Assembly: GCA_951406725.2 (NCBI GenBank)
Contig: OX597826.1
Coordinates: forward strand, 36,518,001 to 36,582,000
DNA from: Octopus vulgaris
Taxonomy: Eukaryota
Length of the DNA: 64,000 nt
Reading direction: 5' to 3'
The position numbers and the translations under genes are program-made. Below, piece after piece: positions 34,158 to 37,949 of this stretch. Every line of letters begins with the position of its first letter. Positions within the stretch are counted from its first letter, which is position 1. The notes beneath the pieces are model-generated. The model saw only the letters and a program-made list of their open reading frames with translations. It was not told the origin of the DNA and did not search any database.

Positions 34158-34400
34158 GTATATTGTCAGACCCCAAAACCTGTTGGCCTAAAATATATGA
34201 TATTTACCATGTGAACTACTATGAAAAAATATGAGAAAGATACAGTATATAATTTACATTATTTACATTTAACAGATATTTGACCTCATCTTGTTTGTTG
34301 TTAACACAACATTTCAGCTGATATACCCTCCAGCCTTCATTAGGTGTCTTGGGGAAATTTCGAATCTGGATTCTCATTCCTAAGGTATGTTTCGATGTTG

Positions 34401-34443
<43 letters not shown>

Positions 34444-34616
34444 CATTATTATTATTATTCAGGTCGCTGCCTGGAATTGAACTCAGAATCTTGGGGTTAG
34501 TAGTCCGCACTCTTAACCACTACGCCATAGTAAATAATTTTTTTTTGTGCAGGGGTTCCTTGAGACATGTAAATTATTTTAAGGGTTGCACAAGGGTAAA
34601 AAGGTTGAGAAACACT
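33954..34616. mobile_element. hAT (Charlie-like) MITE containing a nested ribozyme-bearing SINE
   Basis: Ends caccgtttctcaac and gttgagaaacact; internal gggttc/gaaccc subterminal motifs. Confidence 0.65.
34250..34528 (-). mobile_element. tRNA-head + (TAA)n + hammerhead-tail SINE, copy 1
   Basis: Minus strand has A-box TGGCGTAGTGG, B-box GAGTTCAATTCC, (TAA)n, then acac-CTAATGA-a-ggctg-gagggtatat-cagct-GAAA-tgtt-gtgt at 34304-34347. Confidence 0.85.
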
Positions 34617-36304
34617 TCCCTATGCCAATACCATTCCCAAATAATGGTAGGTTCCAAACTCTACAATATCTGTTCATCAGTCCTACAATATATGATCGGA
34701 TTTTGCTATCTTATTGTTTTATAGAAGAATCTTTAAAAAACCATGGCTTTCTGGTTGATTATTGAAATTATGTTGTGTTATGTATGATATATCGAATATT
34801 TTACATAATGACAACATCATTTCTACATTTAGAAAGTGAAATCATAGACACGTTGAATTTCCAGTGATTTATCATAGAATTCCTGCTGAATATAAAGCAA
34901 CCATTTCCTATCATGGCCTGTCACCCCCACCGGCCACCACTTCCTACAAGAACTCTGTTTATAATATAAAATGATTTAAGTGTTCTTCATTGTAGCTTCG
35001 TCCATCTGTGAGGAATATAATTCCTCAATATATAAATCAACTATTAACTATGAAAATTTACAACAGAAATTTAAGTTGATGGATGGAAATAGACAAGCAA
35101 AATATTCAATATAATCTAGATAAATCCTTACAAATACATTTTCTAATATTTGTATGTTTGTATATTCTATGTAAGGGGTGTATTCATATGTATGTCTTTG
35201 TGTGTGTGTATGTATGTATATGCACGTGTGTAAGTTTATGTGTATGTATGCTTTCATGTGTGTGTGAGTGTGTATGAGATGGTGTGTCTGTGTGTGTGTG
35301 AGAGAGAGAGAGAATGAGAGAGAGAGATATAGTAAGTGTGTGTGTTGTGGCTAGAAAGATCAAAGTTTGTTTAACAAATAAAAATATATATTCTTCTAGA
35401 ACTTCTGACTCCACCCTATCAAGAAACCAGACAAGTTTCTTCCTTCAGACAATCATTCAAAGATCAGTCAAATCATTTTATTCCAAATGAATTCTTCAGT
35501 TTCAAATATTCTATTCAGATATTCATTTGACAAATTTTATTTTATATTTTTGGTTCGGTTTTGTTGTTTGGTTCCAATTTACTGTTCTTCATATATTCAT
35601 GAAACCAATTTTCAACCTCTTTCTAACTACGGCCTTGACAGGTCACTAGTTAGTAAGACATGTATGCGTGTGTCTGTCTGCATGCGTGTGTCTATATGTG
35701 TGTATGTCTGAGTATGTGTACAGCTGTGTATGTTTGCACTTTGGTGTAAATATCATTACACTATAATATACCACAAAATATTTCAATTCCACTTTAGTTT
35801 GTAACAGAGGTCAATATCAGAATTCAATAGCAATGAATGGTAAAAATTTCAATGCAACTTCACTGATAGAAGTATGAAGATGTATTTGAAAATATCTCAC
35901 TTTCTGTATGAGGATATCCAAAATTATCCTTAATTCATGGATATGAAGAGAACAGACATGATTCAATTCTATCAGCATGAAATTACACCCTAATTCTTCA
36001 GTTTTCCTTATATTTCTCTAGTCTTGGCATTTGGTCTTCTGACATTGTGACACAGATAATGCAAGAAACTTCCACCAGGATGGTCATTCTGTTGCATATG
36101 TTGTTTTGACTCCTGTCCATCTGTCCTTGTGCATTTCAGGTTTTCCTGGAATGCTTGAAACTAGATGTTCTTGGATCAAGCTCATTTGCCATTTTCCTTC
36201 TTCCTGTGTCCATTCCTTGTTACCTTTGCATGCTGTGTGTCTGGCAGCTGCAAAGTATGACCTGTTAAGCCAAATCAATGCCAATGTTTGGTAGCACCTG
36301 AAAA

Positions 36305-37100
36305 GCAGTGATCTGGCGGAATCCTTAGCAGCATTTTGTCCATCTGAGTCCAAATTCTGCAAGGGTCATTTTTGCCTTTTAACCTTTTGCCCCTCACCCA
36401 CAAAATTGCTGGCCTTTTGCCAAACTTTGAAGTCAATTTTTTGTAGTGACTGGAATCACAAAATGTTGATAATTTTGATTTTATATACTAAAAATAATTC
36501 TGTCTAACAAAGGCACAAGACCTGGAACATGTGGTGAGGGTGTGTTGATTACATCGACCCCAGTGCTTGACTGGTACTTTATTTATCGACCCTGAAAGGA
36601 TGACCAGCAAAGTCAACCTTGGGGAATTTGAACTCAGAATGTAGTGACAGACAAAATACTACTAAGCATTTCACCCTGCTTGCTAACGATTCTGCAAGCT
36701 CAGAATAATAATACTACTAATATTAATAAATTTTTTTTCAATAAAGCCACAAAACCTGAAATTTGGGTGAGAAGGGTTTGTTGATGACATCAACTCCAGA
36801 ATACAGCTGGTACCTATTTTATTGACCCTGAAAGGATTAAAGATAAAGTCAACCTCAGTGGGATTTCCAATCAGAATGTAGCGACAGACAAAATGGTTAG
36901 CAGCATTTTGTCTGGTGTGTGAATGATTCTGTCTTCTAGCTGACTCATGGCTTCAAATTTTGGCACACAGCCGGCAATTCTGAAATAAGGAGAAATTCAA
37001 CTACAACAACACCAGTTCTCAGCTGGTCCATATTTTATCAAATCCAAAAAGATAAAAAGGCAAAATTAATCTTGATAGAATTTGAACTCAGAATATGGTG
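36305..37100. mobile_element. Cluster of family-B SINEs (one + at ~36305, three - at ~36505, ~36735, ~36950)
   Basis: Repeated gaaaggatga..aaagtcaacct..gaatttgaactcagaat motifs. Confidence 0.75.
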
Positions 37101-37263
37101 AGTCAGAAAATGACTTCCAGGGTAAATACATGCACCCAGGTTTTTACATTGTTCTTGTCTGCCTGCAGTAATATTCTTTTCTATTCCAGGCAGAAGGCCT
37201 GAAATTTGGGGGAGGGGGCCAGTCGATTAGATCGACTCCAGTATGCAACTGGTACTTAATTTA

Positions 37264-37522
37264 CATTATTTGCATTTGACAGATAATTGTCCTCATCTTG
37301 TTTGTTGTTAACACAACGTTTTTAGCTAATATACCCTCCAGCCTTCTTCAGGTGTCTTGGGGAAATTTTGAACCTGGGTTCTCATTCCTAAGGTATTTTT
37401 CGATGTTGTTGTTGTTGTTGTTGTTGTTATTATTATTATTATTATTATTATTCAGGTCACTGTCTGGAATTGAACTCAGAATCTTGAGGTTACTAGCCTG
37501 CGCTCTTAACCACTACACCATG
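37264..37522 (-). mobile_element. tRNA-head + microsatellite + hammerhead-tail SINE, copy 2
   Basis: Minus strand has tggtgtagtgg A-box, gagttcaattcc B-box, and acac-CTGAAGA-a-ggctg-gagggtatat-tagct-aaaaa-cgtt-gtgt at 37311-37355. Confidence 0.85.
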
Positions 37523-37626
37523 GGCATAAATTAGTCATGTCCTTACTGGTTTAAAAACTATACTGCTATATTGAAGTGGGCGTTATAATAATTTGATATT
37601 AAGGATTACAACTGTTGTAATCCTTA

Positions 37627-37702
37627 ATGTCATAGTAGTTAAGAGCACGGGTTACTAACCTGAAGACTCCGAGTTTGATTCCAGGCACTGACCTGAATAA
37701 TG

Positions 37703-37760
<58 letters not shown>

Positions 37761-37949
37761 CAACAACATTGAAAAATACCTTAGGAATGAGAACCCCAGT
37801 TCGAGATTTCCCCAGGACACTTGATGAAGGCTGGAGGGTATATCAGCCGAAACATTGTGTTAACAACAAACAAGATGAGGACAAATATCCATCAATTGTA
37901 AAAAATGTAAATAATGTACATAATTCCTCATCTCTTAAATATAGAACTG
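37627..37949 (+). mobile_element. tRNA-head + (TAA)n + hammerhead-tail SINE, copy 3
   Basis: Degraded A-box, gagtttgattcc B-box, (TAA)n, and acac-TTGATGA-a-ggctg-gagggtatat-cagcc-GAAA-catt-gtgt at 37817-37860. Confidence 0.85.

Follow-up and report, generated by a model that had tools for sequence, protein, structure and literature searches.

The 64,000-nt stretch of Octopus vulgaris DNA analyzed here (assembly GCA_951406725.2, contig OX597826.1, positions 36,518,001 to 36,582,000, forward strand; the window) contains three copies of a short repeat, each with a tRNA-like head, a (TAA/CAA)n spacer, and a tail carrying a damaged minimal hammerhead ribozyme motif. A preliminary description had taken this repeat for a separate ribozyme-bearing family of short interspersed elements (SINEs), and the locus raises the question of what kind of element such a repeat belongs to and how its copies begin at a tRNA-like head. 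We are nearly certain that the apparent SINE (head, spacer, and tail) is the whole pseudo-long terminal repeat (pseudo-LTR) of an autonomous Penelope/Poseidon-type element, that is, a Penelope-like element (PLE).

The protein-coding partner was found at L117, a hammerhead-selected locus in which the tail is joined, in inverted orientation, to a truncated reverse transcriptase (RT). With this RT fragment as the query, 150 matches were scored among 5571 candidates, and 29 RT-selected loci were examined, 19 of which keep the end of the open reading frame (ORF). In all 19, the head lies directly behind the ORF end, 22 nt past the stop codon. The tail, which the preliminary description had proposed comparing with PLEs, consists of a 22-nt leader and the first 163 nt of the Penelope ORF, with the ATG at tail position 23, and from this ATG the majority ORF stays open through the hammerhead for 838 codons (2.5 kb). 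In order, the unit comprises head, (TAA)n, start codon, hammerhead, the rest of the 838-codon RT-endonuclease ORF, stop codon, 22 nt, and the next head. At L184, head, spacer, and tail stand directly upstream of the ORF (93% identity over 1095 nt) and unrelated DNA precedes the head, while at L206 part of the repeat is directly upstream of the ORF. The same hammerhead-coded peptide begins 2 of 22 full-length homologues. L185 and L206 both leave the unit at position 1774, a shared break that may reflect a deletion subfamily or another point where reverse transcription begins. Near-identical ORF fragments of the family at L167 to L170 (contigs C31 and C7), each with an inverted piece and no repeat, resemble segmental duplications.

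The endonuclease (EN) was assigned from motifs and from PF01541 on three homologues. A cysteine linker between RT and EN is reported to mark Neptune and Nematis and not Penelope/Poseidon (PMC8557442); such a zinc-finger linker is absent from the present ORF and is found in the Neptune-type loci L073 and L066, and we therefore placed the ORF with Penelope/Poseidon. Two other candidates for the partner were rejected. Neptune-type families, retrieved with a GIY-YIG profile search, lack the tail in 30 loci, and 20 further loci contained only one unrelated inserted pair. No ORF lies between the same-strand copies at L111 and L112, 3 kb and 5 kb apart, which had been considered as ORF-flanking repeats. 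The Neptune-type family of L073 (2449-5600 of the locus; G000:C16:33680715-33688978) and its relatives is probably young, with intact 781-codon frames in 16 of the 150 matches listed; its repeat has multiple CCAAT, TGACGTC, and TATA words, as in a promoter of the RNA polymerase II (Pol II) type.

The way in which the copies were inserted points to the same kind of element. Copies are single or head to head, and head-to-tail tandem units were not seen. The 3' ends (n = 276) are bimodal, with 123 at -5 to +9 of the outer end, 128 at -45 to -21, and 6 between, which places the two ends about 30 to 40 nt apart, and 88 of 101 head-to-head pairs consist of one full and one tail-less copy. A flank word of at least 10 nt is shared by 37 of the 101 pairs versus 1 of 200 shuffled pairs. 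An inverted partner is present in 51 of 90 loci that were selected on the exact hammerhead only, from the first 100 places listed, on contigs C1 and C2. An inverted partner and a one-sided 30- to 40-bp "tail" are described as PLE features (PMC8557442), and tail and inversion have been reported as Penelope signatures (PMC8557442, PMC11167929). The enzyme of PAc, the Poseidon of Anolis carolinensis (Frangieh et al. 2024), is reported to nick both strands and to initiate reverse transcription at two positions within the beginning of the ORF (PMC11167929). The proposal that a Penelope-type enzyme rather than that of a long interspersed element (LINE) mobilizes the repeat is thus borne out by the ORF linkage, the two 3' ends, and the head-to-head pairs.

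The hammerhead had been reconstructed by combining three motifs with different defects, and the combined 45-nt motif is real: it has 887 exact matches (424 + 463) in the 2.8-Gb genome, whereas a reversed-pattern control has 0. In 139 copies chosen without reference to the motif, its bases are those of the majority throughout, and 5 of these copies match it exactly. From the ratio of exact to all copies, the family was estimated at about 25,000 copies (range, 11,000 to 75,000), a figure that agrees with the 2 copies found among 225 kb of loci that had been chosen for a different family. The short unit is about 270 to 330 bp, and copies average 91.5% identity to the majority sequence (about 8% divergence), which indicates that the family is old. 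RNA reads of a related organism restore the CUGAUGA box (1217/1372 and 1214/1377 reads).

As had been claimed for it, the motif is of the minimal type I with a loopless palindromic helix III, and all of the features listed for minimal PLE hammerheads (PMC4209133) are present: the CUGANGA and GAAA boxes, the extra base, the G10.1-C11.1 pair, the palindromic 15.2-16.2, and an NUH cut site. Of the checks that the preliminary description had named, stem covariation gave a positive result, with 57 of 60 stem II cells paired over 15 motifs behind related ORFs, in which the boxes are retained and the complementary stem II sequences differ, versus a shuffle mean of 36.6 (0/5000), and the first stem II pair is G-C in 14 of the 15; the covariance-model search was negative, since the Rfam hammerhead families gave no match at E of ≤10 in the window copies or a near-consensus copy. 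A dimer fold is predicted to be allowed and not favored (-22.3 versus 2 x -12.0 kcal/mol). A lone monomer is predicted to be inactive, with cutting only as a dimer or with protein help, and a cut would be expected to part the start codon from the rest of the ORF. Inserted copies retain sequence on both sides of the cut site, and the RNA that was copied was therefore uncut or rejoined. The PAc hammerhead is likewise reported to overlap the start codon, to cut only with protein, and to be dispensable for insertion (PMC11167929). Other hammerhead-like cores were seen behind further PLE families of the same genome, downstream of GIY-YIG matches (L034, L057, and L058).

Several observations weigh against this identification. 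The head-then-ORF order is seen at one locus only (L184), an intact repeat-ORF-repeat copy was not found and the unit was tiled from overlapping copies, and the extended sequences of L184, L206, and L185 contain no 3' repeat. The Pfam RT match of the 838-codon ORF is below threshold (E = 2.7e-6), and this ORF has no GIY-YIG match. The 15 motifs of the covariation set were chosen by pattern and by eye, and a few overlapping loci remain within the 101-pair count.

The head is tRNA-derived as judged from its sequence. It has canonical A and B boxes, matches a profile of 8 tRNA genes from the same genome (E = 3e-7), and is 67% identical over 63 nt to two tRNA-Arg genes, the best among the 7 isotypes sampled; the tRNA-like head, (TAA)n spacer, and tail of the preliminary description were found in all three window copies. 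ARAGORN found no tRNA in the head, and Rfam found none in the window copies or a near-consensus copy; no cloverleaf being accepted by either, the origin of the head rests on the profile from the genome's own tRNAs. Many slightly altered tRNA-Lys(TTT)-like copies among the best tRNA matches (L258 to L273) are possibly an amplified pseudogene family. Ohshima and Okada reportedly described in 1994 the octopus SINEs OK, OR1, and OR2, with tRNA-derived heads. A tRNA-Arg origin has been reported for OR1 and OR2. The short form, likened to these three by description only, may already carry one of their names or be present in Repbase, Dfam, or SINEBase.

Where the copies begin bears on the function of this head. 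Among the 90 hammerhead-selected loci, 65 head segments reach the A-box region, and 59 of them stop at the head, while 6 continue into the upstream ORF end, extending 103 to 802 nt upstream; the unique upstream probe detects 15 of 16 positive controls. The 5' boundaries peak at +1 (14 copies) and +7 (12 copies), i.e., 13 and 7 nt before the A box, and none of the 25 copies that start at +1 to +6 keeps the element's own upstream bases in full. The majority unit of 2645 nt contains no sense-strand TTTT (P = 0.027 by synonymous-codon shuffle and 0.017 by base shuffle). Elsewhere in the genome, seven ORF stretches of other PLE families contain 28 TTTT in 8313 nt. Among 78 metagenome relatives, the 47 that remain once near-duplicates and short ones are set aside have a mean of 3.9 per kb. 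The Neptune-type repeat has TATA and CCAAT words, whereas the vicinity of the head has neither.

The best explanation, and in our estimate a probable one, is that the solo copies are run-off cDNAs of RNA polymerase III (Pol III) transcripts that start at the tRNA-derived head. On the simplest reading, copies would begin at the head because the RNA starts there and reverse transcription from the upstream repeat runs off its end. The Pol III start would lie about 13 nt ahead of the A box, the protein would bind the start of its own ORF, and reverse transcription would begin, as for PAc in vitro, at two sites, near ORF nt +163 and at +120 to +140, one for each nicked DNA strand. A start in the upstream repeat would yield a copy of only about 300 nt back to the RNA 5' end, which is a SINE-like solo copy, while a start in the downstream repeat of a read-through RNA would yield the longer 5'-truncated ORF copies. 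The two cDNAs would then join at their ends, often via a small GCCC/GGGC palindrome at the head. We hold more tentatively, and judge to be somewhat improbable, that the whole 2.7-kb RNA, including the 838-codon ORF, is made by Pol III from the captured tRNA promoter, free of TTTT, with cap-less translation and a hammerhead-gated start.

A number of points count against transcription by Pol III. The sample of 90 loci that gave the 5' ends was hammerhead-selected and came from two contigs, and fold-back at the head palindrome could alone be enough to make 5' ends accumulate. One of the 47 relatives has a TTTT-free ORF without a tRNA head, 6 of the 47 are at ≤0.7 per kb, and the single decayed copy L161 has 3 TTTT. 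Uncapped Pol III RNA would leave translation of the ORF without explanation. The stretch itself occurs in at least 20 sequencing runs from 10 studies, under 6 organism labels, and none of those listed is recorded as RNA. In the one RNA run on record, from a related organism, depth is about 630 to 2500 over the repeat and 1 to 18 over the ORF start. Reads in the two orientations are equally frequent, and neither their starts nor their ends accumulate anywhere, accumulation of that kind not being expected from a fragmented library. Passive transcription of many copies, or an unstranded library, would give such a pattern, and it does not settle the matter.

An ordinary Pol II-driven Penelope, into whose repeat a tRNA-SINE was once inserted and whose 5' ends pile up through hairpin fold-back or a Pol II start at that place, seems to us unlikely, even though it would account for the imperfect 10-bp hairpin that spans the head start, the short inverted remnant found there in many copies, and the (TAA)n behind the head, which resembles a SINE tail. 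Characterized Penelope promoters are also reported to sit in the repeat together with an intron (PMC8557442), and the depletion of T runs is modest (P of about 0.02 to 0.03). Such an origin is harder to reconcile with the canonical A and B boxes found 13 nt beyond the boundary, with the many head-start copies that are partnerless or have a partner starting in the tail, with the lack of TATA and CCAAT words near the head, and with the absence of TTTT across 2645 nt; moreover, a 4-bp fold-back should lose to the RNA:DNA hybrid unless the RNA ends there.

The two remaining alternatives concern the short form. It appears quite unlikely to us that this is a separate tRNA-SINE lineage, with solo masters of its own from which it was amplified and with the Penelope enzyme mobilizing it in trans. 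Solo copies do outnumber ORF-linked ones about 10 to 1, they have the properties that SINEBase uses in practice to recognize a SINE (short, interspersed, more than 100 copies, and at least 60% tRNA identity over 60 nt), and those with intact boxes could be transcribed, so that some may have been templates. Against this, the head belongs to the autonomous element at all 19 loci that keep the ORF end, and 47 ORF-linked and 98 solo copies have the same majority base throughout, which gives no sign of a separate SINE lineage; for PAc, the RNA must reach past the start sites into the ORF (PMC11167929), and solo copies are without that stretch. It is on these grounds that the separate ribozyme-bearing family of the preliminary description was given up in favor of a pseudo-LTR that includes the head. 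That the repeat is a LINE-dependent SINE whose hammerhead-like tail is a chance resemblance or a relic has a negligible probability: the lack of an Rfam hammerhead match would suit it, whereas the tail is contiguous in-frame Penelope coding sequence, so that the partner is a PLE and not a LINE and the ORF linkage already refutes this view; the 3' end is no poly(A) or simple-repeat tail and has the two-ended tail signature, and the same motif with covarying stems recurs behind related ORFs.

The arrangement was also sought among relatives. A strict A/B-box pattern had no match behind the 47 related ORFs, relaxed ARAGORN searches of relatives gave noise only, and the tRNA profile, applied to 52 other downstream stretches, matched only L274, and weakly (E = 0.055). 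This locus (L274:2741-3030, metagenome contig JGI1357J11328_10009043) is a young tandem Penelope-type element with repeats that are 100% identical; the repeat contains A/B-box-like words, CCA, and a short TAA repeat, followed by an ATG and a hammerhead. Its ORF has 2 TTTT and no longer T run (deficit, P = 0.17), and the element is 38% identical to the search query and not a sister of the present one in a quick tree made without named reference sequences. L274 is possibly an independent tRNA-headed PLE, for which these features are suggestive only. If the whole RNA is indeed made by Pol III, the run-off copies would be a SINE born directly from the end repeat of its partner, and L274, an unrelated Penelope element, may have done likewise independently.

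Comparison with known systems places the element closest to its Poseidon counterpart in some respects and apart from it in others. As described for PAc (PMC11167929), there is a single RT-endonuclease ORF whose start overlaps the pseudo-LTR hammerhead, two 3' ends lie inside the ORF start with a 30- to 40-bp tail, and 5' partners are inverted; in the available PAc text no RNA-seq reads end at the cut site, and in the one fragmented library used here none did. The repeat here departs from the PAc repeat of that account in opening with a tRNA-derived A/B-box head followed by (TAA)n, in having its ATG 34 nt ahead of the hammerhead core, where that of PAc is internal to the hammerhead, and in that most copies are solo repeats beginning at the head. 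With the minimal hammerheads of metazoan PLEs (Cervera and de la Pena 2014, PMC4209133), the motif shares a loopless palindromic helix III, an extra base before G10.1, the G10.1-C11.1 pair, a 5-bp helix I, and a 6-bp helix II, and those motifs too are mostly dispersed, single or on opposite strands; in the available text of that study no tRNA head or Pol III promoter is described with them, and the present motif, in contrast to theirs, is known from sequence alone. The hammerhead itself and its link to Penelope are of kinds already known.

The schistosome elements Sm-alpha and Sj-alpha (PMC2770079, PMC6765202) have a tRNA-type Pol III promoter, the putative role of the head here, followed as here by a type I hammerhead, and likewise reach a high copy number. 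Their hammerheads, in contrast, are described as canonical and often in tandem, and the available accounts name no autonomous partner with the whole unit, whereas the present unit forms the end repeat of an element that codes for a protein, and its copies lie head to head. In the TRIMp3 elements Cassandra, Helenus, and Ajax (Kojima 2024, PMC10886601), a small RNA-derived Pol III promoter, which the head here would be too, lies in the terminal repeat and is proposed to have arrived by SINE insertion, but those are short nonautonomous LTR elements, while the carrier here is a PLE that is autonomous and has an ORF of 2.5 kb. Non-LTR retrozymes (bioRxiv 10.64898/2026.07.22.740005, PMC7761336) are also noncoding hammerhead-bearing sequences from PLE pseudo-LTRs; they are reported as head-to-tail tandems that make circular RNA, in contrast to the single or head-to-head copies with a tRNA head found here.

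A search of the literature, which did not cover Repbase, Dfam, or the SINEBase supplement, found in the available texts neither a PLE whose repeat contains a tRNA-derived promoter nor a hammerhead element from octopus. In the available part of a 2026 octopus repeat annotation (PMC13282606), the text is without "hammerhead" or "ribozyme" and the supplement without "hammerhead" or "pLTR." As far as has been searched, an autonomous PLE whose repeat has a tRNA head, with SINE-like copies that are probably run-offs, is a new arrangement. Penelope promoters have received little study, and transcription of autonomous retrotransposons is generally attributed to Pol II (PMC3531059, PMC10886601); a Pol III promoter of tRNA origin in a Penelope repeat would, if true, be an exception among them. 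It would also let a SINE-like family arise directly from an autonomous element and may explain tRNA-plus-hammerhead elements such as Sm-alpha. The thousands of solo copies would provide a natural map of where the RNA begins and of the two points at which reverse transcription starts, in agreement, across the genome, with the in vitro PAc model. An apparent tRNA-SINE can in fact be a Penelope end repeat and hence be misfiled.

In the window itself, the three copies are homologous (mean column identity in the alignment, 83%) and lie where the preliminary description had put them, but they represent two insertions rather than three, since the second and third were inserted as one. The differing defects that it had listed for the motifs were confirmed base by base in each copy, and all three hammerheads are likely dead. 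Copy 1 (34245-34529, minus strand) is a solo pseudo-LTR with head, spacer, ORF start, and hammerhead that is without the outer tail of about 30 nt; its motif (34303-34348, minus strand) is damaged by G5>A, C11.1>U, and C15.2>U.

Copies 2 and 3 are a single head-to-head insertion into another SINE, which is bounded on its two outer sides by the same 17-bp word (37247-37263 and 37945-37961, plus strand); the left word, inside a different, abundant SINE, is a target-site duplication and partly microhomology with the element ends. Copy 2 (37259-37525, minus strand), the inverted tail-less left half, is without the last 30 nt, its 3' end being ambiguous within 37252-37264, and its motif (37310-37356, minus strand) is damaged by G12>A, a 1-nt insertion, and stem II changes. 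About 100 nt of filler foreign to the element (37526-37626) separates the two heads. Copy 3 (37627-37949, plus strand) has the full 3' end. Its tRNA-derived head (37627-37697) retains an A-box remnant at about 37628-37638 and a B box at 37673-37682, and is followed by a (TAA)n(CAA)n spacer (37698-37764), which varies in length among copies, and by the first 163 nt of the Penelope ORF (37787-37949; start codon, 37787-37789). The damaged hammerhead lies within this coding sequence (37816-37860; C3>U and G16.2>A), with a predicted cut at ORF nt 70. The copy ends at the outer 3' end, 37949, which is the predicted outer reverse-transcription start.

A 39-bp near-perfect palindrome (37594-37632), mostly in the filler between the heads, has no match to the element or to any locus compared. 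The different, abundant SINE-like repeat that hosts copies 2 and 3 (37181-37258 and 37945-38030) recurs at about 17 other places in the window, e.g., 13751-13832, 15556-15638, and 51908-52049, and dense AT, TAA, and CAC microsatellite tracts are found at many places, e.g., 3959-4413, 47289-47709, and 60790-61340.

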